From the NCBI GenBank assembly GCA_965215855.1, contig CBDCER010000001.1, positions 17,531 to 81,530 of the forward strand: a DNA stretch of 64,000 bases, given 5' to 3'. Below the pieces are notes generated by a model, which had not been told where the DNA came from, did not search any database, and saw nothing but the letters and a program-made list of their open reading frames with translations. Below, piece by piece: positions 937 to 16,386 of this stretch; within the stretch, counting starts at the first letter, position 1, and each line of letters begins with the position of its first letter. A program made the position numbers and the translations under genes. The stretch is from Aggregatilineales bacterium. GTDB lineage: Bacteria > Chloroflexota > Anaerolineae > Aggregatilineales > J027.

Positions 937-2473
937 TGTTGCCCTCTGGCACGCGCCCGTAGACCTCGGTTAGTTCGCGGATGCGATGGATGATCTCAGC
1001 GGTGAGTTGCTCTGGGTGCAAGCGCCATTGCCAGTTGCCACTTTCGCTGCTGGGATAGTTCATGCGGGCCTCGTTGCCTAAGCCCAACAAGTCCTGCATA
1101 GGCGCAATCGCAATGTCCGCGACTGACATCCAGCCGAGTCGGATCAAATCCCAATGCGCTTCGTCGTCAACCAAAATCCGTGCATATTGCCGTGCGAAGT
1201 GCCGTTCGGCGGCTACAACTGCGGGGTCATCGGTCGTGCCGGTGGTATCGGCGCGACGGAACCAGCCCATGGTGGTTTCGTTGTCGTGTGTGCCGGTGTA
1301 GACGACAGTGTTATGCTCATAGTGGTGCGGCAGAAATTCGTTGGATGTGCCTGATCCGAAGGCGAATTGGATGACAGCCATGCCTGGCAGGTCGAATTGT
1401 TTGCGGAGGGCGGTTACAGCTTGGGTGATGATGCCTAAATCTTCGGCAATGACGGGCAATGAATCGCCCAATGCGCCCTGCATCGCTTCGAAGAATGCCG
1501 CGCGTGGACCGGCCACCCAGCGCCCTTTGACCGCCGTCGGCTCCTCTGCCGGAATCTCCCAATAGTCTTCAAAGCCGCGAAAATGGTCAATGCGGATGAT
1601 GTCTACCATTGTCAGCATGGCTCGGAAGCGTTTGATCCACCAGGCAAAGCCGTTGCGCTGCATTAAGTCCCAGCGGTAGAGGGGATTGCCCCAGCGTTGG
1701 CCGGTGGCGCTGAAATAGTCGGGGGGGACGCCGGCGACGACGGTTGGGTTGCCCATGTCATCCAGGTAGAACAGGTGGGGATTGGCCCATACATCGGCGC
1801 TGTCGTGAGCCACAAAAATCGGAATGTCACCGATAATGCGGATGCCGCGTGCATTGGCCTCGGTTTTCACCGCCCACCATTGCTCGAAAAACAGCCATTG
1901 CATGAACTTTTGATAGCCGATGATGTTGCTTAGGCGTTGGCGGGCGGCGTCCAAAGTTACCGGATCACGCTGGATCAGTTCCACCGGCCACTCGACCCAG
2001 GGGCCGCCGCCGTTGTCGTATTTTAGCGCCATGAACAGGGCGAAATCGTCCAGCCACTCGGCCTGTTGGTTGCAGAACACATGATAGGCATGTTTATCTT
2101 CGTAATGGGTCTCGAAATTCTGATAGGCCTGATATAACCGGCTCATTTTGTAGTCAATGACCGGCCCATAATCCACACGCTCGGCGTAGAAGAGGGGCTG
2201 GTTGTCGTCCAGATCGCCCTGGCTTAACAAGCCTTTCTCGACCAGTCGCTCTAGGTTGATGAGCAAAGGGTTGCCCGCGAAGGCCGAAAACGATTGGTAG
2301 GGCGAGTCGCCGTAGCCGGTGGGGCCGAGGGGGAGAACTTGCCACAATTGCTGGCGGCTGGCGCTCAGGAAGTCGAGGAATTGGTAGGCGGCACTGCCCA
2401 GGTCGCCAATGCCGTGGGGGCCGGGGAGGGAAGTGGGGTGTAACAAAATGCCGCTGGATCGCTCAAATGCCAT
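929..2473 (-). CDS. malQ: 4-alpha-glucanotransferase (amylomaltase, GH77)
   Basis: 514 aa. N-terminus is RSSGILLHPTSLPGPHGIGDLG, with GH77-typical blocks along the length. Stop TGA 929-931 overlaps the hutH ATG (ATGGCTGA). Confidence 0.93.
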   Translation of the reverse strand: MAFERSSGILLHPTSLPGPHGIGDLGSAAYQFLDFLSASRQQLWQVLPLGPTGYGDSPYQSFSAFAGNPLLINLERLVEKGLLSQGDLDDNQPLFYAERVDYGPVIDYKMSRLYQAYQNFETHYEDKHAYHVFCNQQAEWLDDFALFMALKYDNGGGPWVEWPVELIQRDPVTLDAARQRLSNIIGYQKFMQWLFFEQWWAVKTEANARGIRIIGDIPIFVAHDSADVWANPHLFYLDDMGNPTVVAGVPPDYFSATGQRWGNPLYRWDLMQRNGFAWWIKRFRAMLTMVDIIRIDHFRGFEDYWEIPAEEPTAVKGRWVAGPRAAFFEAMQGALGDSLPVIAEDLGIITQAVTALRKQFDLPGMAVIQFAFGSGTSNEFLPHHYEHNTVVYTGTHDNETTMGWFRRADTTGTTDDPAVVAAERHFARQYARILVDDEAHWDLIRLGWMSVADIAIAPMQDLLGLGNEARMNYPSSESGNWQWRLHPEQLTAEIIHRIRELTEVYGRVPEGNNG

Positions 2474-2642
2474 CTTGTTTATTCGCTCCTGAAATCCAAT
2501 GTGGTGAAATTCGGCGTGGGGCTGGCTGTCGGGCGAGATAATGCAGATAAATCATGAACCAGGTAATGTTTTGGGCGGGCAGATACGTTGATCCGCCCCT
2601 ATAGCATACCCCAGATTACGCTTCTTCATGCGGAATTTGGGT

Positions 2643-2690
2643 GACGGGGGCGCTATAGCACCCCCCTACAGTCCGTTGCCGATTTCACCG
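2643..2690 (+). repeat. dispersed GC-palindrome repeat, family 2 (core ACGGGGGCGC-TATA-GCACCCCCCTACA..CCGTT)
   Basis: GGGGGCGC TATA GCACCCCC hairpin-capable core at 2646-2666. Related copies at 13859-13947, 24001-24045 and 48273-48368. Confidence 0.6.
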
Positions 2691-3035
2691 CGAAATCTAT
2701 TCGCAAAATTTCGATAGATGATACCAGACATGGCGGGGATGGGCGATGGTTTGGGTGGGGGAATGGGGCCGGGCACGACGGGAGCGAATCCAGGCCGTGC
2801 CCCAGCTTCTGTATATGCCCGACGCCACCAGTTGGCCCCATACCGGTGTGCGAAAAATCGCCTGCGTGCGGACGAGACTACCCTGCGCCTTCTCAATTTC
2901 TTCGCCGCAACCTGCAAACCGTAGTCGGCAGGCACTATTGGAAGCGGTTGTCCTATGGTGGGGAGCCGCTCGCAACCGGAGCCGCATCTTCGTGATAACG
3001 GTTATCCGGCGCCCTGTGAAGAGAGACTGAGGAGT

Positions 3036-3119
3036 GAGACGCACGCCCACCGCCACCCGCAGGCCGTTGTTGTCGTTCCTGTTGTTCGGGTTGTTGTTGC
3101 GCGAGGACGCACCCGCGTC
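3036..3119 (-). repeat. DGR template repeat (TR), non-coding
   Basis: Coding-sense sequence is ..GAC GCG GGT GCG TCC TCG CGC AAC AAC AAC CCG AAC AAC AGG AAC GAC AAC AAC GGC CTG CGG GTG GCG GTG GGC GTG CGT CTC. It has 19 A, 16 of which differ from the VR copy 231 nt away. All 65 non-A positions are identical. Confidence 0.9.
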
Positions 3120-3163
3120 CATAGCCAGGGAGCCTCATGACGCCTTGCGACGCCACGTCCATC

Positions 3164-3169
3164 ATTATA
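3164..3169 (-). promoter_or_regulatory. candidate -10 box (TATAAT) about 45 nt upstream of the TR
   Basis: Perfect TATAAT on the minus strand between the target-gene stop and the TR. No convincing -35, so this is weak. Confidence 0.25.
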
Positions 3170-3190
3170 CCCCATTTCCAAATTTGCGCG

Positions 3191-3228
3191 ATTCGCGCCT
3201 GCGGCGCGGCAGGGGGAAGTGTCCCCCT
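3191..3228 (-). promoter_or_regulatory. two GC-rich hairpins just downstream of the VR and stop codon (DGR target-site hairpin candidate and/or terminator)
   Basis: AGGGGGA-AGTG-TCCCCCT (3211-3228; 7-bp stem, 4-nt loop) and CGCGCC-TGC-GGCGCG (3194-3208). No clear U-tract follows. Confidence 0.5.
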
Positions 3229-3254
3229 ACAACCCCCTCACAGAGGACAGAGCG

Positions 3255-6140
3255 TCATTGAGAAGGGAGACGCACGCCCACCGCCACCCGCAGGCCGCCG
3301 TAGCCGGCCCCGAGGCGCGGGTTGAAGGAGCGCGAGGACGCACCCGCGCCACGGCTGTGGTACGCCCCGCCCATCAATCGCTTATAATTCGTTGATACAA
3401 AATCAATTTTCAAATCACCGCTGTCATTCAAACACCACTCCCAGACATTCCCGGCCATGTCCAACGCGCCGCAATCCGCCGCGCCGTGTGGAAAGACGCC
3501 GACCGCACTCGTCCGCCCAATACCACCTTCGCTTCCATTGACGCGCCGCGCATCAAACTTCGGCCCCCAGGGGTATCCCTGGGCTGGGTTGCCACCCGTC
3601 GCGGCGTGTATCCATTCCCACTCCGCCGGTAAGCGCACCTCGACATTACCCCCGATGACCAGCGGCGGTTGTTGCTCATCTTCAGGATGCGGCAAGGTTT
3701 CGCCCCGCAAACGAGCCGTCAACCAGCGCGTGAAGGCCACGGCCTGATACCACGACACGTTATCACGGGGATAGTTGTCGTATTTTTGGCGCTGGTTTGC
3801 CATCGACTGTTTGTGGTATTCCTCGGTCAACTCGGCCCACCATTCATCGCGCCCGAAGCCATCCTCGGCCCCCAAAAACGCCTCAAATTGGGAATAGGTG
3901 ACCAGATAGCGGGCGATGTAGAACGGCGCGACGGTGAAGGTTTGCCCTTTGATCTCGATCTGTCCGCCTGGCACCGGACACCAGTCGATTTCGGGCGTGC
4001 CATCGTCGCGGACTCCAATACCGAAACGGTCATCGCCCAGGTTGTGCAATGTCTCGCCAATCACGCTACGGCGGGCGGGGGATGTGTTGATGTCATGCAG
4101 TTCGCGCCACAGACGTTTCTGTTCTGGCTCGGTGAAGTCTAGCATCACACGGGCTTCGGTGTTGTCGGGATCGTACTCTACGCCCAGGTTGCGGCAGGCG
4201 TCCTGGAATTCGTTGATTTTGGCGGTGTTGGGCAACATGAAGTCGGGGCGGTCACGTTCATCCCACCAGCGGGCCTCGCGCTCCAGGCTGCGGATCAGGC
4301 GCAGGTCATCCTGGGTGGCCTCGATCCAGTCCGCCAGGCGTTCCCAGTTGCGTAAAATGGCCTCGTGAGCGACTTCCAGTGTCACAGCGCCGTCCTGGCG
4401 GTCGGTAATCAGGAGGCGGGCATCGGTGAAGGCGGTTACCATGTTCCGTTCGTCGGCGTCCAGGGCGTTCGGATCGATGATGGCGCGTCGCCGGGTGGCT
4501 ACGCCGCGCTCATCGACCTCGACCAGTTCATGGAAGATGGCGTGCAGCAGGGCGGTTTTGGCATCTTCAGCGCCGGATAATTTCGCAAAGACGCCCTCGG
4601 CCCGTTTGCCAATCGCGCCCGCCACGCGGCCAATGGCTTCGTAGTCGGCGAAGGTGATTTGCAGAGATTCCGGGGCGGACGAGGCATGCCTCGCCCCTAC
4701 GCGGCGGGATTCGGCGATTTTGTATAGCTCGTCCAGGGCATAGGCCATCAGTGCCAGTGCGCCGCGATCATGGCCCATGTCATCCAAGATCTGGGATACC
4801 AGTCCGTCTTCGAAGTCCAGGGCGGCGCGTTCGGCAGGGCGGACGATCATTTCGTGCAAAGCGGATAGGGTCGGGGCGGCCAGCGGGAATGTTCCGCGTT
4901 GTAGCAGGTCGGCCAGGGTGGGCAGAGCCAGGCAGCGATGGTAGAAATCGGCGCGGAGGGTGATGACGGCGCGTAAACGGTGGCTGGTGTTGATGGCGAC
5001 GAGCAGGGCGGCGAAGGATTCTAGGTAGGCAGGTTGGTTGAGGGTGAACAATTCCTCAAACTGGTCGATGAACAGCAATAGCTCGGCGTCTGGTGGGTGG
5101 GCAGTCAACGCCGCTGCGCCCCAGTTCAGGATGCTGGCTGGATCTTCGTGCAAGGTAGTCGCCAGTTGGCGGGGCACTTCGCCAACCAACGGCCCGAACC
5201 GTGCCGCTAATGCTGCAAAGGGGTTATCGCCGATTTCGCCGGGCGTAAAACGCAGGTAGACCCACTGCCGCAGGTCGTTGTTCCAGGCGGGGAGCAGCCA
5301 GCCACTGCTATCTGGCAGCGCATCATCCCCCAAACGCGGCAATAATCCGGCCCCCACAAGTGATGATTTACCGGAACCACTGGCCCCAATCACCGCCACA
5401 AATCGCGCCTCGCGCAGGCGTTGCACCAGCCGGTCGGTTTCGCGTCCGCGCCCGAAATAAATGGCGGTTTGCTGATCATTGAAGGGTTTCAGGCCGGGGA
5501 AGGGTGATCCCTGCCAGAGCTGGGGCGGGGCACCGGGTGGTTTCTCGGTGGTGGTGGTGGTGGCGTCGGGGTGCTTCCGCAGATAGCGGAGGTGGCTTTC
5601 CAGTTGTTGGGTGAACAATTCGCGGAAATCTTCGGGTTCCTCATAGCGGTTTTCAAAAACCGGGTCGCCGTCGGGTGTTTTGAAGTCGGCAAAGAAGGTC
5701 TCGACTTTTTGCCATTGGGCCAGGCGTTGTGGGGCGTCGGGTTGGCGCACATCAATTTGGGGGTCAGCCGTTCGCCGATAAACCCACGTCTCCACACCCG
5801 CTGCCAGTGCATCGCTCAACTCGTAGTGTGTGCCCGAATTATACGGCTCACCATCCATCGTCACTTCCGACCCCATCCGCGACCAGAATATCACGATGAC
5901 CAAATCACATTCGGAAGGCTTAATCAAATAACGATCCACCGATTTTTGGGCGTTGACGTTGGCAGGCATCGGCAGCGTCACCCTCGGATCATCCCAACGC
6001 AGCGGCTCCAGCGTGAATTCACCTTTGAATTCATCCTGGAAGTTCATGTCTTCGATGACTTTCGCTGCGATGCCGCGTTCCTCGGAGACATCGCCGGGAG
6101 ACGAGATGAAAATGCGGAGATGGCGGGGATCTGAGGTCAT
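3255..6140 (-). CDS. DGR target: DUF4062-like N-terminal domain + P-loop STAND NTPase + C-terminal FGE-sulfatase/C-type-lectin-fold domain
   Basis: RIFISSPGDVSEERG (DUF4062-like). FPGLKPF..IYFGRGRETDRLVQRL..FVAVIGASGSGKSSLVGAGLLPRL (Walker A) and LLLFIDQFEELF (Walker B). C-terminal YLVTYSQFEAF, NVSWYQAVAFTRWL, GNVWEWC, GGAYHS..GLRVAVG (FGE fold). Start placed at ATG 6140 (AAGGA 7 nt upstream); the ORF track extends to 6218. Confidence 0.85.
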   Translation of the reverse strand: MTSDPRHLRIFISSPGDVSEERGIAAKVIEDMNFQDEFKGEFTLEPLRWDDPRVTLPMPANVNAQKSVDRYLIKPSECDLVIVIFWSRMGSEVTMDGEPYNSGTHYELSDALAAGVETWVYRRTADPQIDVRQPDAPQRLAQWQKVETFFADFKTPDGDPVFENRYEEPEDFRELFTQQLESHLRYLRKHPDATTTTTEKPPGAPPQLWQGSPFPGLKPFNDQQTAIYFGRGRETDRLVQRLREARFVAVIGASGSGKSSLVGAGLLPRLGDDALPDSSGWLLPAWNNDLRQWVYLRFTPGEIGDNPFAALAARFGPLVGEVPRQLATTLHEDPASILNWGAAALTAHPPDAELLLFIDQFEELFTLNQPAYLESFAALLVAINTSHRLRAVITLRADFYHRCLALPTLADLLQRGTFPLAAPTLSALHEMIVRPAERAALDFEDGLVSQILDDMGHDRGALALMAYALDELYKIAESRRVGARHASSAPESLQITFADYEAIGRVAGAIGKRAEGVFAKLSGAEDAKTALLHAIFHELVEVDERGVATRRRAIIDPNALDADERNMVTAFTDARLLITDRQDGAVTLEVAHEAILRNWERLADWIEATQDDLRLIRSLEREARWWDERDRPDFMLPNTAKINEFQDACRNLGVEYDPDNTEARVMLDFTEPEQKRLWRELHDINTSPARRSVIGETLHNLGDDRFGIGVRDDGTPEIDWCPVPGGQIEIKGQTFTVAPFYIARYLVTYSQFEAFLGAEDGFGRDEWWAELTEEYHKQSMANQRQKYDNYPRDNVSWYQAVAFTRWLTARLRGETLPHPEDEQQPPLVIGGNVEVRLPAEWEWIHAATGGNPAQGYPWGPKFDARRVNGSEGGIGRTSAVGVFPHGAADCGALDMAGNVWEWCLNDSGDLKIDFVSTNYKRLMGGAYHSRGAGASSRSFNPRLGAGYGGLRVAVGVRLPSQ
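3267..3350 (-). repeat. DGR variable repeat (VR) inside the 3' end of the STAND/FGE gene
   Basis: Coding sense is ..GGC GCG GGT GCG TCC TCG CGC TCC TTC AAC CCG CGC CTC GGG GCC GGC TAC GGC GGC CTG CGG GTG GCG GTG GGC GTG CGT CTC. It differs from the TR only where the TR has A. Confidence 0.9.
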
Positions 6141-6298: not shown

Positions 6299-8881
6299 AT
6301 GAGCCAGCAGATCATTGCCAACCGCTATGAAATCAACGAACTGATTGGCCGGGGAGGGATGGGCAACGTCTATCGGGGCCGCGATACCCAGACGGGCGAT
6401 TCGGTTGCTATCAAACACCTGAAAAGCCATGTCATTGAAGAAAATCCGGAGCTGATCGAACGTTTCAACCGCGAGGGCAAACTTCTCCGCAAGCTGGATC
6501 ATCCCAATATTGTTACTGTGCTGGCAACCATTGAGGAAGACGATAACCATTACATCGTCATGGAACATATCGGTGGCGGGTCGCTGCGCGATATTATGGA
6601 GCAGGACAGCCCTTTGCCCGTGCGGCACGTTCTGGAAATTGGGCTGGATATTGCCGACGCGCTGACGCGTACCCATCGCTTGAACATTATCCACCGCGAC
6701 ATCAAACCGTCGAATGTCTTGATGGCTGAAGATGGGACGCCGCGCCTGACCGATTTCGGTATTGCGCGGGGCGGTGGCGATGGGAAAACTCAACTGACCA
6801 GTACGGGGGCCGTGCTGGGGACTTATGCTTATCTCAGCCCTGAAGCCTGCATGGGGGAAGAACTGGACGCCCGGGCTGACATCTGGGCGTTTGGCGTCAT
6901 GCTATATGAAATGCTGACGGGGCAGCGCCCGTTTGAATATGGGCACGAAGCCGCGACTCTGATCGCTATTTTGCAGGAGGAGACGCCGGATGTGCGCCAG
7001 GCGCGTCCGGATATGCCGGAAGAACTTGCCATTTTGATCGACCATGCTCTCATTAAAGAGCGCGACCAGCGCATTCCCAGTATCCGTCGCGTTGGTGCTG
7101 AGTTGGAAGCGATTTTGTTCTCACTGGATAAACGTAGTAGTGATGGGTCGCGGTTTGCTACCCCCTCCACGTCATCGGCTATGCCAATCTCTGCTTCGCG
7201 CCTGACCCGCTCCCCGACGGATACTGCTGGGGAAGAAAACACCGTACTCATGACTGAAACCGGCTTTGGCAAACGTACATCGCGGTGGCAACGGTTTCTG
7301 GCTGTGGACATTTTTGTTGCATTTGCTATTCTGGTTGTTGCCGTGCTGCTGTTCGCCACTGGTATATTGAGCGGCGATGATGATGCGGAGCAACAACCCA
7401 CAGCGGTCGCCGTTGTCGCTCCCCAGGATTCCGACCACTATATTGTCCTCGTTGCGCAAATGGAACCTCTGACGTCCAATGAACGTGATGTCAGCCGATT
7501 CATTGTCGATAATTTGCAGCAAAAACTGGAGCGCGAAATCACGTTCTCGAACATTCGGGTTTTTGCCTATCCGGGGATTATACGTAGCGAGGCCGAGGCA
7601 CAGATTATTGCTGAAGCCAACAATGCCGTTGTTGTCGTTTGGGGCAACTATACCACTGACGTCATTGAGCTGGAGATTCAATTGGGCGCGACCGCTGTAT
7701 TCGCCGATATACCCATCTCGCGCACTCGGATTCAAGAAGCGACCAACGTGCGCGTTCATATGGAGAATGAACGGTTGGAGTCTATTGCGCCGCAGGTGTT
7801 GGGCGTCATTGCCGTTTTGCAAAATGCCAGTGGCGATGGCTATGAACTGAGCCGCACGGTGGCGATATTGGCTGAACTGGATGTGGTTGATGCTGAGATT
7901 TTTGGCAACAGCGTCGCGGCCCATACCCACCGCTTTTTCCGGTCTTTCTTGATTGATTCGGATGTGGCACTCCAGGAAATCCGCGCTGCTCAGGTACTGG
8001 CGGCTGGCAACCCCATTCTCTATACTGCCGCCGCCAGCGCCTATATGCGTTTCGGCCAGTTGCAGAGCGCCCGCACTGATATTGAGATCGCGTTACGCCT
8101 CGAAACGTCTGATGAATGGGCGATGCCGCTCTATTTGCAGGCCAATGATGCCTTAATAACCAACGATATTGATGCTGCTATTGAAATATATAGCGACATC
8201 ATCATGCTGCGCCCCGATGATTGGTTTCCGCATAATTTCCGGGGCGCGTTGTATTATCTGAAAGCAGATTATCGACAGGCCAGCGTTGATCTCGATACTT
8301 CGCTGAGGCTGGAACCCAACGCCAATTTCCCTTACCTGTTTTCGGTATCCATTGCGTTGCGGGAAGGGCGCATTGCCGACGCTCAACAATTGATGCGGGA
8401 GGTACTCGCTCGCTTTCCTGATCCCTCGTTAGGCAATCGGACCATCACCGCGACCTATGGCGACCAGTTTCCGATCCCCTTTGGCCCGCTGTTCTCAGCT
8501 TTTGGTAATTTGCTGTTGGGGCGCTATGAGGACGTGATTACCGATGCTGAACAGGGTCTAGTGATGGACAGCCAAATACCTGAAATTTATATGTTGCAGG
8601 GATTGGCCCATTGTAATCTGGATGATGATGAATCGGCTGTAGACGCCTATACAGCAGCTATTGAACTGGCTCCGGATTTCTATACGCTTTATTTGTTGCG
8701 CGGTGATGCCCGTTTTCGCGCGGATGATGTTGATGGATCGAATCAGGACGCTGCGACTGCCACTGACCCAGATAATGGCCTGGATAACGCTTTGATGCCG
8801 TATTTATTAGCAGGTGTGCGCGGCGAATTGACCTGCAAGAATTTCTTCAGCTATGAGTTGCCGGAAGAAGATAATGACTGA
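6299..8881 (+). CDS. Ser/Thr protein kinase - single TM - extracytoplasmic domain - TPR repeats
   Basis: GRGGMGNVYRG, AIK, HRDIKPSN, DFG, SPE (Hanks motifs). TM segment FLAVDIFVAFAILVVAVLLFATGIL. TPR-like C-terminal half. Confidence 0.9.
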   Translation: MSQQIIANRYEINELIGRGGMGNVYRGRDTQTGDSVAIKHLKSHVIEENPELIERFNREGKLLRKLDHPNIVTVLATIEEDDNHYIVMEHIGGGSLRDIMEQDSPLPVRHVLEIGLDIADALTRTHRLNIIHRDIKPSNVLMAEDGTPRLTDFGIARGGGDGKTQLTSTGAVLGTYAYLSPEACMGEELDARADIWAFGVMLYEMLTGQRPFEYGHEAATLIAILQEETPDVRQARPDMPEELAILIDHALIKERDQRIPSIRRVGAELEAILFSLDKRSSDGSRFATPSTSSAMPISASRLTRSPTDTAGEENTVLMTETGFGKRTSRWQRFLAVDIFVAFAILVVAVLLFATGILSGDDDAEQQPTAVAVVAPQDSDHYIVLVAQMEPLTSNERDVSRFIVDNLQQKLEREITFSNIRVFAYPGIIRSEAEAQIIAEANNAVVVVWGNYTTDVIELEIQLGATAVFADIPISRTRIQEATNVRVHMENERLESIAPQVLGVIAVLQNASGDGYELSRTVAILAELDVVDAEIFGNSVAAHTHRFFRSFLIDSDVALQEIRAAQVLAAGNPILYTAAASAYMRFGQLQSARTDIEIALRLETSDEWAMPLYLQANDALITNDIDAAIEIYSDIIMLRPDDWFPHNFRGALYYLKADYRQASVDLDTSLRLEPNANFPYLFSVSIALREGRIADAQQLMREVLARFPDPSLGNRTITATYGDQFPIPFGPLFSAFGNLLLGRYEDVITDAEQGLVMDSQIPEIYMLQGLAHCNLDDDESAVDAYTAAIELAPDFYTLYLLRGDARFRADDVDGSNQDAATATDPDNGLDNALMPYLLAGVRGELTCKNFFSYELPEEDND

Positions 8882-11492
8882 GCAAGCGAGACCGATACTC
8901 GCTGACCGTTTTGAAGTGGGTGACCGTTTGGGGCGGGGCGGCATGGGGGATGTCTTTTTAGGCCGCGATTTGCAGACCGGTGATCAGGTTGCCGTCAAAT
9001 TGCTGAAACCGGAAATTGTGGAGCATGATCCTGACCTCGTGAAACGCTTTGACCGCGAGGGCGAGATGCTTCGTAAACTGAACCATCCGAACATCGTTAC
9101 GATTCTGGCAACTTTGCAGGAAGATGGTAAACACTACATTGTCATGGAATATGTTGGCGGCGGTTCTTTGCAGGATTTACTTCAGCAGCAGCCCCAACTG
9201 CCAGTGCAGCGCGTCCTCGAAATCGCTCTCGATATTGCTGACGCACTGACGCGTGCCCATCGCCTAAACATCATTCACCGCGACATCAAACCCGCCAATG
9301 TGCTGATTGATGAGGAAGGGCTGCCGCGCCTGACCGATTTCGGCGTCGCCCATATGGGAGATCGTACCCGCCTGACGGAAACAGGTTCTCTCATTGGGAC
9401 TTATGCTTATCTCAGCCCAGAAGCCTGTCAGGGGGTTGATCTGGATGAGCGTGCTGACATTTGGGCATTTGGTGTGATGCTCTATGAAATGTTGGCCGGA
9501 CAGCGCCCGTTTGTGTCAGATAAGGTCGGCACGTTGCTGGTGCAGATTATGAATCAACCTGTCCCATCCTTGATCGAGTACCGGCCTGATGTTCCCATAG
9601 AATTGGCCGAACTGGTTCATTGGATGCTGGAAAGGGAACGCGAGGATCGCGCCCCGACCGTGCGAGTGGTCGGCGCTCAACTGGAAGGCTTGATGCGCGG
9701 CATTGATACTACGCCCCAGACAGGCCGTGCATCTGTGCAAAAAGTTGATGCGGAAGCCAAATCGCGCTTTGCTACACCAACGCCTTCCAGTGGTGGCCCG
9801 GTGGCGGAAGGCGACACCGCTATTACCCCACCGGAGTCAATCAGGGTTGAATTGCCGGCAAGCTCTAATGTGATTGGGGTTGGACAATCACATTGGCTGA
9901 AGTGGGTTACGGTGATTATTGGCATCCTGGCGGTTGCAGCGGTCGTCATCGCCGGCATGTTTTATGGGGGAAGGCGCGATGATGAAGGCGATACTTCGCG
10001 TCGATCTGTCGATCAAATTGCCAATTATGTCGGTGAAGCTGTTCCCGACGATGAATTTCTGATTTTGGTGGCCCATCTGGAACCTATCAACACAGATGAG
10101 CGCGAGGTTGCCCGCTTCATCATTGACGATTTGAGCCAATATCTTGAAGTCAGCATTCCTGATTCCACCATGCACGTTCGGGAATATCCGGATATTGTTA
10201 TCTCGTCGGAGCGGGCCAGCCGGGCTGCTGCTGCGAATAAAGCTGCTGTGATTGTTTGGGGAAGCTACACTGATACGTTTATTCAACTGGATGTCCAGAT
10301 TGGCTCACTCCATGCGTTTCCATATAACGATTTCCCCCGCGAAGATGTGGAGCGCGTTACCAATCTTCGGGTGCGGATGACGGATGTTTTTGAGGAGTCG
10401 GTCACGCCAGTGGTGTTGAATGCTCTCAATACGTTGTATGCCGCCAACGGCGACGCTTTTGACGTGCTGCGAATCGGCGTGATCGCCAGCCATATGAATC
10501 TTGTGCCAGCCCAGCCGGTTGGTGACAGCCTGGCGGCTTACAGCTATCGGGCCAGCATCGCGCCTTATCTATTCGAGACTCAGGCCGATAGTGATGTGTA
10601 TGCTGAAGAACAACTGGCCGCAGCCCTCACCATCGAGCAGCACCCACTCATCTATACACAGCGCAGTATGTGGTATGTTACACAAGGGCGTTTTGATGAA
10701 TCACGGGAAGACGCCCAAACTGCCATCCTGCGTGGCCCCGATGACTGGGTCATTCCTATGTACGTCATTACAACGGGTTCTGACTTTCAAGAAACGATTG
10801 ATTTGTTTTCCACCATTGTCGAACTTCGCCCCGAAGACTGGTATGCAGCTTACCAACTCGGCGCTCTTTACTATTCTGTGGGAGTGACCGAGCTTGCCAT
10901 CGCTTACTTAGATCAGGCCGTTGCTTTAGAAGCCGAAGCTAGTTTCCCGTATCTTGTCCGGGGAATTATGGCCCTCCACGATGGGCAACTGGCCCTTGCT
11001 GCTCAACTCATGCAAGTTGTCGTAGACAAATTTCCTGATCCATCCTACAGTCGCCGTCTGATGCAGGCGTCTTTTGGTGATCAGGAAGGGTTCTATGTGT
11101 GGGATGCCTATTTGAATGCGGCTACTAGCTTGGCTTTGAGTCAACATAACGATGTGCTGGCAGCTCTGGAGAACATCGTCCTCGAAGTCCCCCTGTCCGA
11201 TTTCAGCCTGTTACAAGGTCTGGCTTATTGCAATCTGGGTGAGTATGCTGCTGCGGAGGAAGCTTATAGCCGTGCCTTGCAGCTTGATCCCGATTTCAGA
11301 ATGCTCTATCTATTTCGGGCCGAAGTCAGCACTCATCAGGAGGATACCGACGGCGCTGTAGCCGATTTTGCACTGGCCCGCCAACATGGCTACGGACCGG
11401 AATTCGATACCGTCATTGCTGCTTATGAAGCGGGTAATCTGACCTGCGAAAACCTCTTCATCTATTCGTCGCAAGCTGCTACCATCGACTGA
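8874..11492 (+). CDS. Ser/Thr protein kinase - TM - TPR, tandem paralog of the upstream gene
   Basis: Same architecture and collinear similarity to 6299-8881, including the C-terminal LTC(K/E)N(F/L)F. ATG 8874 overlaps the upstream stop (ATGACTGA). The ORF track starts at 8853. Confidence 0.9.
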   Translation: MTEQARPILADRFEVGDRLGRGGMGDVFLGRDLQTGDQVAVKLLKPEIVEHDPDLVKRFDREGEMLRKLNHPNIVTILATLQEDGKHYIVMEYVGGGSLQDLLQQQPQLPVQRVLEIALDIADALTRAHRLNIIHRDIKPANVLIDEEGLPRLTDFGVAHMGDRTRLTETGSLIGTYAYLSPEACQGVDLDERADIWAFGVMLYEMLAGQRPFVSDKVGTLLVQIMNQPVPSLIEYRPDVPIELAELVHWMLEREREDRAPTVRVVGAQLEGLMRGIDTTPQTGRASVQKVDAEAKSRFATPTPSSGGPVAEGDTAITPPESIRVELPASSNVIGVGQSHWLKWVTVIIGILAVAAVVIAGMFYGGRRDDEGDTSRRSVDQIANYVGEAVPDDEFLILVAHLEPINTDEREVARFIIDDLSQYLEVSIPDSTMHVREYPDIVISSERASRAAAANKAAVIVWGSYTDTFIQLDVQIGSLHAFPYNDFPREDVERVTNLRVRMTDVFEESVTPVVLNALNTLYAANGDAFDVLRIGVIASHMNLVPAQPVGDSLAAYSYRASIAPYLFETQADSDVYAEEQLAAALTIEQHPLIYTQRSMWYVTQGRFDESREDAQTAILRGPDDWVIPMYVITTGSDFQETIDLFSTIVELRPEDWYAAYQLGALYYSVGVTELAIAYLDQAVALEAEASFPYLVRGIMALHDGQLALAAQLMQVVVDKFPDPSYSRRLMQASFGDQEGFYVWDAYLNAATSLALSQHNDVLAALENIVLEVPLSDFSLLQGLAYCNLGEYAAAEEAYSRALQLDPDFRMLYLFRAEVSTHQEDTDGAVADFALARQHGYGPEFDTVIAAYEAGNLTCENLFIYSSQAATID

Positions 11493-11528
11493 AAGTGTGG
11501 CAGCCCAATTCCCATAAGGAGTTTTGTT

Positions 11529-13556
11529 ATGCGTTTTAGACCAATGATGATTTTGATGATGCTCGTGGTGTTGTTGCTCTCCGTCGGCCCAACAGCCGCC
11601 ATCGACACACACGATTCATCGCCGTTAGCGTCACAAGATGAGCCAGCACCTTTGCTCAAAATCGGCGAGGTGCAGGGCGCAATTACTGATGACGAAACCG
11701 ACCCGGAGAATTTTAGTTCGCCGTATCGCAATGAGCGCGTGCAGGTATCTGGTGTGGTCACCAACCTCATCATGCTCAACACCGATGGCCGCGAGGTCAG
11801 CGGCTTCTTTTTGCAGGAGACTGCTGAAAACAGTGACGGCGATCCCAACACTTCCGATGGTATTCAAGCGATCATCGGCGCGTCTCCCAGTTTGGATGAC
11901 TACACTCCTGCGGTGGGCGACATCATCACCATTGAGGGCAAGGTTGAGGAGTATTATGGTTTGACGCGCCTGACGCGCCTGGCTTTTGTCAGTCTTGATG
12001 GGCAGGTTGATCACCTGACCGATGCCATTCCACCTGTCGAGATCAATCCGGGCAATGTATTACTGGAAAATTCCATTGTTTATGAACGTTTGGAAGGGAT
12101 GCGGGTTATCGTTCCCGTTCCGACGCTGGTCGTTTCTCCGACACACTTGTTTTCCTCGACCAATGACACAGAAACCTATGTCATTCGTTCCGATCATCCG
12201 GTGGCTCAACGGGAGGACCCACTCACGCGCCGTATCTTCCGTGATCCGCACGAATTGGACGACGGCCTGCCGGGCGAGAATCCGTATCGCATTTCCGTTG
12301 AGGGCAATATTTTGAAGGCAGAAGCGGGTGATTACAACGTCAATCTTCCAGCTTATAATACCTACGACACATTTTCTTCGTCGTTAGTTGGCAACATCGT
12401 GTATAGTTTTGGACGTTATACGCTGCAGATCGAAGCGTTGCCTGACCACGAAGTGAGCCTGTTGCCTGATACCAATGCACCCGTTGAAGCTCCAGACCGT
12501 GCCATCCAGTACACTGTCGCTACCTATAACATCGAAAATTTCTACGACTACTACAACGACCCCATTGATTTCCGCGACACGCCCGGTGACGGCACACTCA
12601 ACTATGTTCCGCTTTCCGTTGAACATTACGATGCGAGAGTCACCAAGCTGGCGTTGTCCATTATCGAAGACCTTCATGCACCGGACATTATCGCGTTCCA
12701 AGAAATTGAAGATCAGGACGTGTGTGTGGGTGGGGGGCAGGTTTATGGCACATGTGCCGATGTTGATAATGCTGATGGGATGCCGGATGTGTTGCAAGAT
12801 GTGGCTATTCGGATCAGTGAACTGACCGACGGCGAAGTCGTCTATATATCGGTCACCGACCGTGAAAGCGCCGATGATCGTGGCATCTCGCAGGGCTATC
12901 TCTACCGTGCAGATCGTGTTGAAATGCCGACGGCTGATCCGACAGACCCCGTCCTCGGTGAGCGTCCTGAAGATCCCGACGCCCGTTATTATGAATTCAA
13001 CCAGTCGGTGAGCAATCCCAAATCGCTCAACCAGCGTTTCGGCCCCGGCACACCGCTGTTCACGCGTCCGCCGCTGGTGGGTCTGTTCCACATCTATCAT
13101 GAGACGGTGGGTGAAGGGGATTATGTGGCGGTTTATCTCTCTGATAACCACTTCAAGAGCGACCCGACTGGCTACAATGCTCTGCGCGAGTTCCAATCGC
13201 TCTACAATCTCAGCTTTGTTGAAGCACTTCAGGCCGAGAATCCTGATGTCTACTTCATCATCCTGGGGGATCTGAATTCCTTCCGCGAATCGCAAGAAAT
13301 GGCAACGCTGGAGCCGACTATGACCAGCCTGTGGGAGATGATTCCTGCCGAGTCGCGCTATACCTATATTTTTGCCGGGCAAACGCAGACACTCGACTAC
13401 ATCTATGCTACACCTAATCTGGTCGACCACCTGGACTCGGTACGTGTCGCCCATATCAATGCCGACTATAGTTTCACCTATGAAACTGATGCGTCGCTGA
13501 GTTGGCGGGCTGCTGATCACGACCCGATTGTCGCAACCTTTAACTTCCCTGAATAG
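11529..13556 (+). CDS. secreted ExeM/NucH-type extracellular nuclease (endonuclease/exonuclease/phosphatase fold)
   Basis: Signal peptide MRFRPMMILMMLVVLLLSVGPTAA. EEP blocks ATYNIENF, AFQEIED, GDLNSF, DHDPIVATF. Confidence 0.8.
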   Translation: MRFRPMMILMMLVVLLLSVGPTAAIDTHDSSPLASQDEPAPLLKIGEVQGAITDDETDPENFSSPYRNERVQVSGVVTNLIMLNTDGREVSGFFLQETAENSDGDPNTSDGIQAIIGASPSLDDYTPAVGDIITIEGKVEEYYGLTRLTRLAFVSLDGQVDHLTDAIPPVEINPGNVLLENSIVYERLEGMRVIVPVPTLVVSPTHLFSSTNDTETYVIRSDHPVAQREDPLTRRIFRDPHELDDGLPGENPYRISVEGNILKAEAGDYNVNLPAYNTYDTFSSSLVGNIVYSFGRYTLQIEALPDHEVSLLPDTNAPVEAPDRAIQYTVATYNIENFYDYYNDPIDFRDTPGDGTLNYVPLSVEHYDARVTKLALSIIEDLHAPDIIAFQEIEDQDVCVGGGQVYGTCADVDNADGMPDVLQDVAIRISELTDGEVVYISVTDRESADDRGISQGYLYRADRVEMPTADPTDPVLGERPEDPDARYYEFNQSVSNPKSLNQRFGPGTPLFTRPPLVGLFHIYHETVGEGDYVAVYLSDNHFKSDPTGYNALREFQSLYNLSFVEALQAENPDVYFIILGDLNSFRESQEMATLEPTMTSLWEMIPAESRYTYIFAGQTQTLDYIYATPNLVDHLDSVRVAHINADYSFTYETDASLSWRAADHDPIVATFNFPE

Positions 13557-13633
13557 CATTAGATTCGGGTGAAGTGAATACACAAAGCCCCCCTATACCG
13601 TTGAGATAAGGATTATGAGGCGGGTTTTTGTTG

Positions 13634-13710
13634 CATTGGGCTAGAACCCCAACGCTCAATGAAAAGGGCATCATGGCCGCATTTTTCACTGAGCGTGAGG
13701 GTTCAAGCCC
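13634..13710 (+). repeat. hairpin repeat, family 1, copy A (more diverged at its 3' arm)
   Basis: TTGGGCTAGAACCCCAACGCTCAATGAAAAGG...TTTTTCACTGAGCG.. matches the copies at 37096-37170 and 45699-45772. Confidence 0.65.
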
Positions 13711-13858
13711 ACGCGGACTCCCCCAAGCATACCTTCGATGCTCCCGTTGGTTGTAGAGGGAGGACTGTTCGTATTCTCAAATCCCGCTCATAAAGCGATG
13801 AATCGTACCAGGCACGAATCCTTTTTTAGTATGATCCTGTCGGCGAACTAGTGTAATA

Positions 13859-13947
13859 GGGTGATTCTTGGATAGGGTGGAGGGTTTGTGAGGGCAGGAG
13901 ACGGGGGCACGGTTACAGCCTCTTATGCCCATCGTCACGCGGATTCT
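13859..13947 (+). repeat. family 2 repeat, long form
   Basis: GGTGATTCTTGGATAGGGTGGAGGGTTTGTGAG..GAGACGGGGGCACGGTTACAGCC.. aligns by eye at about 75% with 48273-48368. Confidence 0.6.
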
Positions 13948-13952
13948 GTGCC

Positions 13953-14855
13953 TTATCCGACGCAGTCGCTCAGAAAATCCAGGATGCGGTTGAAGCGTTC
14001 TGGCGTCAGGGCATGTTCGCCATCATCGCGGAAATGCGTGATATGTTCATTCGATACGGCGCGGGCAATTACCTCGGTGGCATCTTTCGCATAACGGTCA
14101 TTCTCAGCGGAGACAACAAACAACGGGCGCGGTGCGATACAATCCAACAGGTGATATAAATCCCAGCGGGCGGCAAAACCCGGAATGACGAGGGCCAACT
14201 CTAATGCAATATTATGCTCACGCTTGTAGGCATAGGAACACAACGCCCCGCTCGATACTGCAAAACGGATGCGAGGTTCCAGTGCTGCCTGAAATAGCAC
14301 GGTATTGCCGCCATAAGAATGTCCCAGCGCACCGATTTTAGTGGTGTCCATCTGTGGATGATGCGCTAACAGCGATAGAGCAGTGGACGCATCGGAAAGC
14401 ACTTTTCGCATCAAGGTGTCGCCCTGTGTCAGCCGGTTTCCCATTTCGATGTAGTGCTGGATGTCATCGTGTTCGTGGGGTTCGATACCGGTGGCGTTGC
14501 GGCGGCGGTCTTCAAAACAAATCGAATCGGGAGCTAGAATCATAAAGCCGCGTTTTGCCAGTTCTGGGCCAAATGCCTGCAAGGGATCGCCCGCAATGCC
14601 CATGATCTCGCTCTTGCCCAGGTAGCGTTGGCTGGCGTGTTGGTGATGGACCAGCACTGCGGGAAATGGTCCGTCGCCATCTGGGGATAGCAGGAATGCT
14701 GGAATCTCATCGCCATCGGCAGCCTTGTATATGATTCGTTGTCGGGTAAATCCGGTGTCGGGCACGGTTTCCAGAACTTCATAATCTATCGCTGTTTCAA
14801 TACGTTCCAAATTCAAAAAGCGCCGGATGTCTTCACGCAGCGTTGATGGATTCAT
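13953..14855 (-). CDS. alpha/beta hydrolase (dienelactone-hydrolase-like)
   Basis: GHSYGG nucleophile elbow, C-terminal His region and overall length. Confidence 0.7.
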   Translation of the reverse strand: MNPSTLREDIRRFLNLERIETAIDYEVLETVPDTGFTRQRIIYKAADGDEIPAFLLSPDGDGPFPAVLVHHQHASQRYLGKSEIMGIAGDPLQAFGPELAKRGFMILAPDSICFEDRRRNATGIEPHEHDDIQHYIEMGNRLTQGDTLMRKVLSDASTALSLLAHHPQMDTTKIGALGHSYGGNTVLFQAALEPRIRFAVSSGALCSYAYKREHNIALELALVIPGFAARWDLYHLLDCIAPRPLFVVSAENDRYAKDATEVIARAVSNEHITHFRDDGEHALTPERFNRILDFLSDCVG

Positions 14856-15021
14856 TCAAGCAACCTCCTCCTGATAACATCGCTGTGCCTATTATCCGCC
14901 AAGCGCGAATCTGACACAAAAACAGGCATTCATCATACCTCACCAACATCCTCACATTTTCTACACAACCTTGCCGGACAATGACGCTATACAACCATTC
15001 ATCTACTGGAGTGTCTAAATA

Positions 15022-16320
15022 ATGTCTTCAATATCAATCACGCAGGAACTCGCAACACCACAAACACCGGTCAAGGAAATATCCAAGACCATGCGAACTT
15101 TTCTCATTGTCTGGCTGGGGCAATTTGTGTCGGTTATCGGCAGTAGCATGACCGGTTTTGGCCTGGGCGTATATGTTTATCAGCGAAGCGGATCGGCTAC
15201 GGATTTCACGCTAATCTTCCTCTTCACCATGTTGCCACGCGCACTGTTCGCTCCGTTAGCCGGTTCATTGGCAGACCGCTGGAACCGTCGCTGGCTTATG
15301 ATTCTGAGCGATACCGGCGCGGGAATCACTACTATCGCGGCCGCACTGCTGCTGGCTTTTGGTGATCTGGCCCTGTGGCATATTTACGTTATTGTGTTCA
15401 TCAACGCTTTTTTCAATGCGCTGCAAGGGCCAGCCTATGCGGCTTCCATCGCCCAACTCGTTCCCAAACAGCACTACGGTCGGGTCAGCGGGATGGTCCA
15501 ATTGGGTGAGGCTTTTGGGCAGATTGCAGCGCCGGTATTGGCTGGGGTATTGATCAGCACAGTTGGCCTGTCGGGGATCCTGAGTCTGGACATGATTACG
15601 TTTTTCTTTGCCGTGACAACCCTGATGTTGGTACGCTTTCCCGCCGTTCAAGCGTCGTCTGACCATGCTTCGTCTGAGGAAAACGAGCTTTCCGGCTGGC
15701 TGGAAGGCTGGCGCTATCTGAAAGCTCGTCCTGGTTTGCTGGCGCTGGTGCTGAGTTTCTCGCTGACGAACTATTTCGTGGGCAATGCCGAAGCTCTGCT
15801 GACGCCGCTGATCCTCACGTATGCCTCGACAAGTGCCCTGGGAACCGTGTTGTCGGTAGGTGGTCTGGGAATGCTGGTTGGAAGCATTGGGATGAGTATT
15901 TGGGGTGGCGGTGAGCGCAAAGTGTATACCTCAATGGGTTTCTATGGTCTATTGGGCGTCATGGTGATCTTGATGGGCCTGACCAGTAACCTGTTCATTG
16001 TGGCAGTTGTGTTGTTCGTCGCTTTCCTGTCTGTGCCGCTGACGATAGGCGCAAACAACGCCATTGTGATGAGTAAGGTCGATCAGCGTGTGCAAGGGCG
16101 GGTGTTCGCGCTACGGATAATGCTGAATACCGGCGCTTTCGCGCTGGCTTATATGACCGCTGGGCCGTTGGCAGACCAGGTTTTCGTGCCGCTGGTGGGT
16201 GAAGAAGGCATTGCAACGCTGTTCATCGTAATGGGCATCCTGGCGATGTTAACGGCAATTGGTGGGCTACTCTATACACCGCTGCGCCGGGTCGAGATTG
16301 ACCTGTTGGATGCGGAATAG
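15022..16320 (+). CDS. MFS transporter
   Basis: About 12 hydrophobic segments. GSLADRWNRRWLMILSD loop motif typical of the MFS_3/EntS-like group. Confidence 0.8.
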   Translation: MSSISITQELATPQTPVKEISKTMRTFLIVWLGQFVSVIGSSMTGFGLGVYVYQRSGSATDFTLIFLFTMLPRALFAPLAGSLADRWNRRWLMILSDTGAGITTIAAALLLAFGDLALWHIYVIVFINAFFNALQGPAYAASIAQLVPKQHYGRVSGMVQLGEAFGQIAAPVLAGVLISTVGLSGILSLDMITFFFAVTTLMLVRFPAVQASSDHASSEENELSGWLEGWRYLKARPGLLALVLSFSLTNYFVGNAEALLTPLILTYASTSALGTVLSVGGLGMLVGSIGMSIWGGGERKVYTSMGFYGLLGVMVILMGLTSNLFIVAVVLFVAFLSVPLTIGANNAIVMSKVDQRVQGRVFALRIMLNTGAFALAYMTAGPLADQVFVPLVGEEGIATLFIVMGILAMLTAIGGLLYTPLRRVEIDLLDAE

Positions 16321-16330
16321 ATTGAGGCAA

Positions 16331-16360: not shown

Positions 16361-16386
16361 GCATCACATGATTTCCAGCATTATCC

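Follow-up and report, generated by a model that had tools for sequence, protein, structure and literature searches.

A diversity-generating retroelement target locus in Chloroflexota with a conserved template RNA gene and no nearby reverse transcriptase

The target gene and its protein

The window analysed here is a 64-kb stretch of DNA carrying, on its minus strand, a large gene that ends in a variable repeat (VR) and is followed by a template repeat (TR) and a structured RNA region, as in a diversity-generating retroelement (DGR; Table 1). The protein was identical to a database entry (P0001). With its central nSTAND1 domain and single C-terminal CLec/FGE domain it fits the STAND-CLec antigen-sensor architecture, and by this analogy we consider it a putative STAND-type antigen or immune sensor with a tip rewritten by a DGR. 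The C-terminal domain matched FGE-family PDB chains, and its dN/dS was ~0.15 when compared with the homolog in a related locus (L001, see below). The VR and the stop codon of the 961-987 aa ORF (the length depending on the start codon) were separated by 9 nt. A reading of the sequence alone had placed the VR at the C-terminus of a large ORF, and this was borne out. The FGE-sulfatase/C-type-lectin domain covers the VR. The closest named matches of LepA were from Chloroflexota/Anaerolineales MAGs (82-85% identity). Filamentous growth is generally known for Anaerolineae.

Table 1. Features of the locus, in positions of the window
Feature	Position	Strand	Details
DGR target gene	3255..6140	(-)	961 aa from ATG 6140; maximal ORF from TTG 6218
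DUF4062 domain of target protein	~6116-5811	(-)	Pfam E=1.6e-5
nSTAND1 NTPase domain of target protein	~5504-4245	(-)	Pfam E=7e-101
FGE-sulfatase/C-type-lectin fold of target protein	~3944-3285	(-)	Pfam E=4e-29
VR	3267..3350	(-)	last ~30 codons of target gene; 16/19 A-templated sites differ from TR
GC-rich hairpin 1	3209..3230	(-)	9-bp stem, 4-nt loop CACT; 36 nt past VR end
GC-rich hairpin 2	3194..3208	(-)	CGCGCC-GCA-GGCGCG, GNA triloop; 58 nt past VR end; DNA fold
TATAAT box	3164..3169	(-)	candidate -10 element of an independent TR-RNA transcript; read from sequence
Leader hairpin of TR RNA	3136..3157	(-)	9-bp stem, GCAA tetraloop (GNRA)
Leader:spacer duplex, 5′ strand	3122..3139	(-)	pairs with 2890-2871, bracketing TR
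TR	3036..3119	(-)	non-coding; 19 adenines in 8 AAC, 2 GAC and 1 AGG codon-equivalents
A-free GC-rich 3′ block of TR	3065-3036	(-)	30 nt
Linker from TR to spacer core	2951..3035	(-)	alignments: kept in L001, variable or absent in other relatives
Structured spacer ("Sp-like") RNA 3′ of TR	2760..2950	(-)	homologous to TR-RT spacer of RT-linked DGRs
Spacer 5′ hairpin	2933-2910	(-)	
Spacer 3′ strand of TR-bracketing duplex	2890-2871	(-)	
Conserved single-stranded A-rich stretch of spacer	2817-2805	(-)	CAUAUACAGAAGC
Terminal hairpin of spacer	2804-2764	(-)	

The TR/VR pair

The TR and VR, re-aligned on the minus strand, were 84 nt long each and lay 231 nt apart, and a repeat search of the window recovered the pair independently. 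The TR was composed of 19 A, 29 G, 27 C and 9 T. Its adenines accounted for every one of the 16 mismatches, three adenines were unchanged and none of the 65 non-A positions differed, a distribution with a probability of 1.5e-14 if 16 mismatches were to land on 19 of 84 positions by chance. The changes comprised A>G (7), A>T (5) and A>C (4), a near-random spectrum. The adenine-specific pattern described in the sequence-only reading was therefore exact on re-alignment, and a tabulation by template base gave zero mismatches at non-adenine positions of the TR. The assignment of the two copies was also unambiguous: a bias in the reverse direction was absent, because the VR showed no A-specific differences against the TR.

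The codon comparison from TR to VR (AAC>TCC, AAC>TTC, AAC=AAC, CCG=CCG, AAC>CGC, AAC>CTC, AGG>GGG, AAC>GCC, GAC>GGC, AAC>TAC, AAC>GGC) was correct as first given. Alignment and codon tabulation also upheld the description of the A-rich copy as non-coding with an AAC-codon design. Its adenines occupy codon positions 1-2, and stop codons cannot be reached from its AAC, GAC and AGG codons. The earlier variant counts were right, with 4^19 = 2.7e11 DNA variants and 15^8 x 3 x 4^2 = 1.23e11 peptides.

Homology between the copies ended abruptly on the 5′ side (3120/3351) and faded on the 3′ side past 3036/3267 (ACTCCTCA versus CCTTCTCA). The 3′ block was, as claimed, identical in the two copies, A-free, GC-rich and followed by diverging sequence; it occurred twice in the window, against zero expected occurrences. 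The labels IMH and IMH* may be applied to this block and its diverging flank as candidates, by sequence analogy.

Two GC-rich hairpins were found between the VR and the TR. Hairpin 1, taken from the DNA fold centroid, was 94% conserved in L001. Its size fits the rule of a 7-10 bp stem with a 4-nt loop (Guo et al. 2011), although the loop is not GRNA, and it is a candidate target-recognition hairpin or cruciform. In L001, hairpin 2 differed solely at the N position of the loop (GTA), and three relatives (L035, L036 and L002) had hairpins of the GCGCG-GAA/ACA type at a similar distance from their own VRs. The loops in the window differ from the phage GRNA consensus, and their distances from the VR (36 and 58 nt) exceed the phage range of 4-34 nt.

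A locus of this kind might instead have nothing to do with a DGR and have arisen by tandem duplication of the 3′ end of the gene, with drift or selection acting afterwards. Genes are known to undergo segmental duplication of their 3′ ends, which is a general point and nothing specific to this locus. Against this stand the confinement of all 16 differences to the adenines of one copy with a near-random spectrum, the position of the A-rich copy within an RNA homologous to DGR spacers, and the DGR RT and bAvd genes carried by relatives of equal layout. We give this explanation next to no credence; ordinary duplication is effectively refuted by the mismatch table. The locus is almost certainly a DGR TR/VR pair.

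The TR-RNA gene

The TR was part of a non-coding unit of ~400 nt (~3157-2760, minus strand). A clear -35 element was absent at the TATAAT box and a consensus promoter scanner made no call there. The closest RT-linked relative (L002) also had TATAAT, and other relatives had -10-like boxes, likewise just 5′ of the leader hairpin. That a TR-RNA promoter lies at this box is something we only infer.

The leader hairpin was found at the equivalent place in every relative, with differing stem sequences and with GCAA, GAAA or UUCG loops. The leader was further predicted to pair with the spacer in a duplex of 16 bp (dG -24.3 kcal/mol), which was matched by 1% of shuffled leaders and was also predicted in the MFE fold of the whole unit. 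Both the duplex, with different sequences, and the leader hairpin were present in 12 of 12 loci. An analogous element is the "cPRT Stop" duplex described by Handa et al., in whose work TR-flanking RNA elements of the Bordetella phage RNA were required for RT-Avd-dependent cDNA synthesis.

The spacer also contained a long-range helix, and the A-rich stretch and the terminal hairpin came after these elements. Of its 35 pairs, 20 covaried, and 91% of the cells were paired, as opposed to 41-45% with the partners slid. No Rfam family matched the spacer RNA. Under a covariance model the window spacer scored 144 bits, second-best among all loci, and was the sole copy in the window; L039, which had been left out of model building, was recovered at 95 bits. 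The window spacer had no private deviation from the consensus: all 11 of its deviations were common to L001, and 8 were also found in the RT-linked L002. Judging from its sequence, the TR-RNA gene of the window is complete and intact.

Absence of RT and Avd from the window

No DGR RT motif (I/LGxxxSQ ... YxDD) was found in any frame of the 64-kb window, which extends 61 kb from the TR in one direction and 3 kb in the other. Searching the window by phmmer with six related DGR RTs gave a best E-value of 0.07 and none below 0.05, tblastn of the window was negative for RT, and Pfam scans of all its large ORFs revealed no RVT_1 domain. For Avd, phmmer and tblastn searches of the window with three bAvd probes, confirmed as PF22296, returned a best E-value of 0.03, which is noise. 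Directly upstream of the target, where L002 has RT and bAvd, there were two Ser/Thr kinase genes; the gene after the TR was malQ. The RTs of L002 and of other relatives belong to a very large, conserved clade, with >8000 matches in a protein search.

The DGR signature reported from the sequence alone was thus right and the notion of a self-contained cassette was wrong, because neither RT nor Avd is encoded in the window. The missing reverse transcriptase was the sole omission of that observation.

This absence favours the main rival to servicing of the locus in trans, namely that it is a recently orphaned relic. A complete cassette such as L082 (target-VR-TR-spacer-Avd-RT) would have lost RT and Avd, so that the TR and VR record a frozen last homing and no diversification takes place now. 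Deletion intermediates exist among the relatives: in L083 the RT is absent and Avd survives only as its C-terminal half, and in L084 the RT is reduced to a 100-aa fragment. Both are clear deletion derivatives, so dead loci commonly arise through loss of RT. "Degenerate" loci have also been described by Dore et al. (PMC10907252). On the other side, neither the 0/65 non-A mismatches between TR and VR nor a spacer free of private deviations is in keeping with a relic.

Comparison with related loci

L001 was a second RT-less locus, from which both RT and Avd were likewise absent. It had no flanking synteny in common with the window, and homology between the two stopped at the same base. This shared end, with no remnant of Avd or RT, suggests an old RT-less junction and not a recent one, again unlike the expectation for a recent orphan. 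The TR unit was 94-96% identical between the two loci, against a dS of 0.65-1.9 for the target genes. The resulting K/dS of ~0.06, compared with 0.12-0.25 for RT-linked pairs, indicates a constraint at least as strong as in the latter, and from these sequence comparisons the TR unit appears to be under purifying selection without an RT in cis.

The VRs of the window and L001 were identical at 65 of 65 non-A sites and differed at 13 of 19 A sites. Moreover, 20 of 20 four-fold sites were identical within the VRs (P ~4e-6), as opposed to 4 of 9 just upstream. Such homogenisation together with divergence at the A sites is sequence evidence for homing having continued after the two loci split, and it too speaks against a frozen relic.

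L001 itself shows signs of decay in its sequence, which are points in favour of the relic. Neither the 3-nt insertion nor the C>T change seen in its TR was present in its own VR, and two private substitutions in its spacer broke a conserved helix. Weighing all of these observations, we regard recent orphaning of the window locus as unlikely, although it is the strongest of the competing explanations.

For the VR of L001, the match to a window-type TR was closer than that to the mutated TR of its own locus, and another, unmutated TR copy could serve there. This raises the further alternative that the local TR is not operative in the window either: a master DGR elsewhere with a near-identical TR would supply the cDNA and the local unit would be a passenger duplicate. 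There is a precedent in Thiohalocapsa, where trans diversification of RT-less loci was inferred and their VRs match the TR of the complete locus (PMC10907252). A passenger, however, would not stay at a K/dS of ~0.06 with all structural elements intact. In addition, no further TR, IMH-like block or spacer was present in the 64-kb window, and exact-pattern scans of genome and metagenome collections yielded no other copy of the TR family. We consider a passenger TR quite improbable.

L002 (Aggregatilineales MAG JBBSBM010000056) was the closest RT-linked relative of the window TR unit. The two had in common the order target-VR-TR-spacer, the TATAAT box, the leader hairpin and many lineage-specific spacer features. 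Unlike the window, L002 possessed an RT on the minus strand and a bAvd directly upstream of the target, as well as a second target. Its TR and RT were on opposite strands and 3.4 kb apart, which we count as a precedent for servicing in trans.

A proposed trans-serviced locus

We lean towards the explanation that this is a real DGR target locus in which the template RNA gene has been retained, while RT and Avd are not nearby and act in trans. Rather than being recently orphaned, the window would on balance be an RT-less satellite DGR locus still serviced by an RT-Avd encoded elsewhere. This kind of locus and the target class are already known; what is unusual is a TR-RNA gene that is intact and conserved with RT nowhere in 64 kb.

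Under trans servicing, the TR RNA would be transcribed from its own promoter, and an RT-Avd complex from another part of the genome would bind it, recognising the conserved spacer and duplex. The spacer would prime cDNA synthesis, the TR would be copied with random misincorporation opposite adenines, and synthesis would halt at the TR-bracketing duplex. The A-free GC-rich 3′ block, together with the hairpins downstream of the VR, would then guide the cDNA into the place of the VR. In this way the ligand-binding face of the putative STAND-type antigen sensor could take up to ~1.2e11 variant forms.

A broader suggestion, which we put forward only tentatively and with some doubt, is that RT-less "satellite" modules exist, each a STAND-lectin sensor with its own complete TR-RNA gene comprising promoter, leader hairpin, bracketing duplex and spacer, kept by purifying selection, mobile as a unit from one genomic site to another and all served by a single distant RT-Avd "hub". 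If so, the DGRs of these filamentous bacteria would form a hub-and-spoke hypermutation network with a private template for each sensor, and RT-centred DGR finders would systematically overlook the spokes.

This is one more clean case of a DGR rewriting a putative bacterial immune sensor, here a STAND NTPase whose lectin tip is hypervariable. The locus also suggests that selection can preserve a template RNA gene that has no adjoining reverse transcriptase. Since such genes persist with no RT nearby, RT-anchored pipelines (myDGR, DGRscan and similar) will miss loci of this type, and their counts of targets will be too low. An RNA-based handle for finding TR units, one that needs no RT, is offered by the conserved spacer and the bracketing duplex, with a covariance model absent from Rfam. 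Should trans servicing be confirmed, recognition of the RNA by RT-Avd, and not genomic linkage, sets what is mutagenised, which would be relevant to DGR biology and to the engineering of targeted hypermutation.

Comparison with known DGR systems

In multicellular bacteria, the targets diversified by clade 5D DGRs are "antigen sensors" of the STAND NTPase-C-type-lectin type (Dore et al. 2024, PMC10907252), and RT-less "degenerate" loci with inferred trans diversification have already been published from that work. The window shares with these DGRs the nSTAND1 domain and single C-terminal CLec/FGE domain with the VR, the AAC-rich TR, the existence of RT-less loci and, probably, a host from a filamentous lineage (Chloroflexota). 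It is set beside clade 5D by target architecture, having no RT to place in the RT phylogeny. Unlike the loci of Dore et al., it has kept a complete TR-RNA gene, apparently under purifying selection, and has no MITE or transposon scars in place of the RT.

Adenine-specific transfer from TR to VR into the C-terminus of a C-type-lectin fold is shared with the DGR of Bordetella phage BPP-1, as are the GC-rich 3′ homology block, the hairpins downstream of the VR, the duplex of sequences upstream and downstream of the TR and the structured spacer with A-rich single-stranded segments. BPP-1, however, has a compact phage cassette acting in cis (avd-TR-Sp-brt, target mtd) with the TR directly upstream of brt, whereas the window locus is chromosomal, has its TR directly after the VR and lacks RT and Avd in cis. 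The hairpins of the window have non-GRNA loops and lie 36-58 nt from the VR, against a range of 4-34 nt, and the target is a tail fibre in BPP-1 and a cytoplasmic STAND NTPase in the window.

Action at a distance, as proposed for the window, is known from Treponema denticola and Trichodesmium erythraeum (PMC4143802; Wu et al. 2018, PMC5758913). The TR can be expressed there as a separate ncRNA, and distances of >100 kb between targets and RT can occur (PMC4143802; PMC5758913); a stand-alone TR ncRNA is documented in T. erythraeum (PMC4143802), and remote DGR targets and a plasmid-borne avd-TR-brt acting in trans are documented as well. In those remote-target systems the TR stays beside the RT and only the VR genes are remote. 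In the window, by contrast, target and TR stay together, and it is the RT that is remote or absent.

Template and variable repeats and the target gene

The template repeat (TR) and variable repeat (VR) of the diversity-generating retroelement (DGR) aligned without gaps over 84 nt on re-alignment. All 16 differences fell at TR adenines (A>G 7, A>T 5, A>C 4), three adenines were unchanged in the VR, and none of the 65 G, C or T positions had changed. The probability of 16 mismatches all falling on the 19 A positions by chance is 1.5e-14. The same pair was recovered by an independent repeat search of the window, where the A-free 30-nt block GGCCTGCGGGTGGCGGTGGGCGTGCGTCTC occurred exactly twice against zero expected. 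The sequence-only reading had proposed a DGR from adenine-confined differences; these were borne out and the DGR reading was right. Its codon table and its diversity arithmetic were likewise correct (4^19 = 2.7e11 DNA variants and 15^8 x 3 x 4^2 = 1.23e11 peptides). A stop codon was computed to be unreachable by mutating the A-templated positions. The TR with A replaced by N had no match in a genome contig collection, and a 27-nt A-free block had none in a metagenome contig collection, so this TR family is rare.

The target protein carries DUF4062, nSTAND1 (E=7e-101) and a C-terminal FGE-sulfatase domain of the C-type-lectin fold (E=4e-29), which matched FGE-family chains in PDB. It has more than 4,500 homologs, mainly in Chloroflexota MAGs. 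The LepA of the window was 82-85% identical to that of Chloroflexota/Anaerolineales-like MAGs, placing the source among them. Divergently beside the target are two Ser/Thr protein kinases, paralogous to each other and with TPR repeats at the C-terminus (6299-8881 and 8853-11492, both plus strand). Since they are not conserved beside the target of the sister locus L001, a functional link between kinases and STAND sensor is unsupported.

Features of the window element and of two degraded relative loci
Feature	Locus	Position	Strand	Remarks
Target ORF	window	6140-3255	minus	961 aa; maximal ORF from 6218
VR	window	3350-3267	minus	84 nt; last ~30 codons of target
GC-rich hairpin 1	window	3230-3209	minus	after VR; 9 bp, loop CACT
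GC-rich hairpin 2	window	3208-3194	minus	after VR; CGCGCC-GCA-GGCGCG
TATAAT box	window	3169-3164	minus	upstream of TR
Leader hairpin	window	3157-3136	minus	upstream of TR; 9 bp, GCAA loop
Leader:spacer duplex	window	3139-3122 with 2890-2871	minus	16 bp, dG -24.3
TR	window	3119-3036	minus	84 nt
A-rich single-stranded stretch	window	2805-2817	minus	CAUAUACAGAAGC; equivalents in all relatives, consensus AUACAAAAG
Avd remnant	L083	2116-2337	minus	C-terminal half of Avd only, without RT
RT fragment	L084	12970-13269	minus	100 aa after target; without TR or spacer

Absence of reverse transcriptase and Avd in cis

The gene 3′ of the TR (929-2473) is a GH77 4-alpha-glucanotransferase, and the 514-aa ORF after the TR, considered as a reverse transcriptase (RT), was rejected as being this enzyme. 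No GxxxSQ...YxDD motif was present in any frame of the 64-kb window. Searches with phmmer and tblastn, using six DGR RTs and three bAvd accessory proteins from relatives (confirmed beforehand as RVT_1 and PF22296 bAvd), gave only noise in the window and in L001. The window extends 61 kb from the TR in one direction and 3 kb in the other. Among all large ORFs in the window, Pfam scans picked up housekeeping genes, the two kinases, a nuclease of the Mrr type and a single DDE transposase, but no RVT_1. Two ORFs overlapping the TR (2697-3122 and 2953-3165) were rejected as spurious because they had no family matches and lie inside the conserved RNA.

The nuclease (16387-17421, minus strand) combines HARE-HTH with an Mrr_cat restriction-endonuclease fold and also matches NA-iREase1, "NACHT-associated inactive restriction endonuclease"; it may be another conflict-system component. 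The transposase (31905-33068, minus strand), DDE_Tnp_1 with a DDE_Tnp_1_assoc domain, is separated from the TR by ~29 kb, and no other gene of the window obviously belongs to a mobile element. Four paralogous bacterial SH3_3 proteins cluster at 46911-52970, three with GDSL lipase/acylhydrolase domains.

Structure of the TR-RNA gene

The spacer region (2950-2760) shared homology with the TR-RT interval of relatives that carry an RT and were identified via target-protein alignment (L002, L014, L015, L025, L034, L035 and L036). A nine-sequence alignment gave a consensus structure of 35 pairs, 20 with compensatory changes. Paired cells amounted to 91%, against 41-45% with partners slid by 1-3 columns, and none of 500 shuffles matched the observed pairing values. 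The covariance model built from this alignment matched the window once, at 144 bits, the second-highest score of all, and recovered L039, a locus outside its seed, at 95 bits. The unit belonged to no Rfam family, its sole match (E=0.81) being noise, and a sigma-70 and terminator scan of it gave nothing convincing.

The leader hairpin had a counterpart at the equal position in all relatives, with differing stems. The 5′ strand of the leader:spacer duplex comprises 18 nt, stopping 3 nt short of the TR, and its 3′ strand is an invariant spacer block. A duplex as good was obtained in 1% of shuffled leaders. An equivalent duplex of 12-17 bp, differing in sequence, was present in 12 of 12 loci and stopped 1-3 nt before the TR in nearly all of them. 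Prediction was too noisy with 60-nt and ~280-nt partners and became readable only once limited to the leader and the invariant block. Two short local spacer helices proposed by RNAalifold (A4 columns 46-48/65-67 and 68-70/76-78) showed almost no covariation and were rejected; the 3′ strand of this duplex accounts for them better. The window TR, which the duplex abuts, is shorter than in relatives (84 nt against 123-135 nt), as would fit a duplex that marks how far copying extends at the 5′ end.

Both hairpins after the VR were kept in L001, the only change in the second being at the loop N position. The VRs of relatives have similar GNA-capped hairpins at about equal distance downstream. The window hairpins resemble the phage hairpin rule of Guo et al. 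2011 without fitting it exactly.

Related loci

TR-spacer units were found at 12 loci; the fetched sequence included an RT for nine of these but not for the other three, the window, L001 and L083. The complete order, target-VR-TR-spacer-Avd (antisense)-RT, was seen in L082. In L002, from an Aggregatilineales MAG, the TR follows the VR and the RT lies 3.4 kb off on the opposite strand. Many homologs had no DGR machinery within 10 kb; L085 is an example, as are the four targets arranged in tandem in L086. L083 and L084 are natural decay intermediates of the cassette. Targets in this family are commonly detached from the RT.

The L086 array (6849-20443) comprises three nSTAND1-FGE genes and one TIR-NACHT-FGE gene, adjoining a TIR protein and a type I restriction subunit. 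RT, TR and spacer were all absent within 10 kb. The setting suggests an array of sensors, whose diversification presumably takes place at a distance.

The sister locus and probable continued function

L001, on a 612-kb ENA contig, encodes the closest target homolog (P0002, 63% identity), with a TR/VR pair directly 3′ of that gene and neither RT nor Avd within 10 kb on either side. The 415-nt TR-containing block (window 3179-2765) and the 105 nt after the VR were each 94% identical between the loci, versus 73-80% for the target coding sequence. Target-gene dS was 0.65-1.9 (0.72-0.74 in the FGE domain adjoining the VR). The flanks shared no synteny, and in both loci homology broke off at one and the same base, window 2760. 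Since neither RT-less locus has an Avd or RT remnant at this shared end, both probably inherited the RT-less junction from a common ancestor.

L001 has features of its own. A partial second copy of the spacer 3′ end (14427-14552; 65 nt, 92% identical to window 2824-2760) follows 0.7 kb after the full spacer, and the two copies bracket two small ORFs without Pfam matches. The span (13769-14552) resembles an insertion or a duplication whose site coincides with the 3′ boundary of the TR unit. A 307-nt insertion (13057-13363), absent from the window and flanked by the duplicated motif AAATGGARTATAC, lies between the VR-flanking hairpins and the TR promoter. Other conflict-type genes nearby encode DUF4062-NB-ARC-TPR and TIR-CHAT proteins (1424-4288 and 18417-21350).

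The TR unit evolved at ~0.06 of neighbouring dS, compared with 0.12-0.25 in the RT-linked pairs L035, L036 and L039. It is thus at least as constrained as these, favouring continued function. Relative to the consensus of RT-linked spacers, the window spacer had no deviation of its own: each of the 11 recurred in L001, and eight were also present in RT-linked L002. The two VRs were identical at 65 of 65 non-A sites, including 20 of 20 four-fold-degenerate sites (P ~4e-6 at adjacent pS), against only four of nine matching four-fold sites in the 120 nt upstream, and differed at 13 of the 19 A-templated sites. Identity at non-A sites with divergence at A sites implies that a conserved TR has repeatedly overwritten both VRs since the lineages split, each VR being randomised independently.

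The main rival, that the element is a recently orphaned relic, is possible, if rather unlikely. It draws on a 3-nt insertion and a C>T change in the L001 TR that are absent from its own VR, on two private L001 changes that break a conserved spacer helix, on the obvious deletion derivatives L083 and L084, and on the failure to find an RT for the source genome, there being none in the 64-kb window. Constraint, the intact spacer, the VR comparison and the common RT-less junction together favour continued function. Servicing in trans by an RT and Avd encoded elsewhere is the best-supported mechanism and, on balance, a probable one.

Comparison with known systems

Within a known DGR type, the window element represents a satellite that lacks both RT and Avd and has a TR-RNA gene that is intact and under constraint. 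Its target belongs to the same class as those of clade 5D DGRs, in which a STAND NTPase with a single C-terminal CLec domain forms the "antigen sensor" (Dore et al. 2024, PMC10907252). Detachment from the RT agrees with remote DGR targets (Wu et al. 2018, PMC5758913), with degenerate loci inferred to be diversified in trans (Dore et al. 2024) and with the stand-alone TR ncRNA of Trichodesmium (PMC4143802). Target class and RT-less loci are already published; worth keeping are the RNA model built for the TR unit and the evidence that a TR gene is under selection even where no RT lies in cis. The leader:spacer duplex corresponds to the "cPRT Stop" duplex of Bordetella phage RNA, whose upstream and downstream strands bracket the TR and which was predicted in 207 other DGRs (Handa et al.). 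By analogy with Bordetella phage Sp A56, the conserved A-rich stretch, situated between the long-range helix of the spacer and its terminal hairpin, may supply the priming adenosine.
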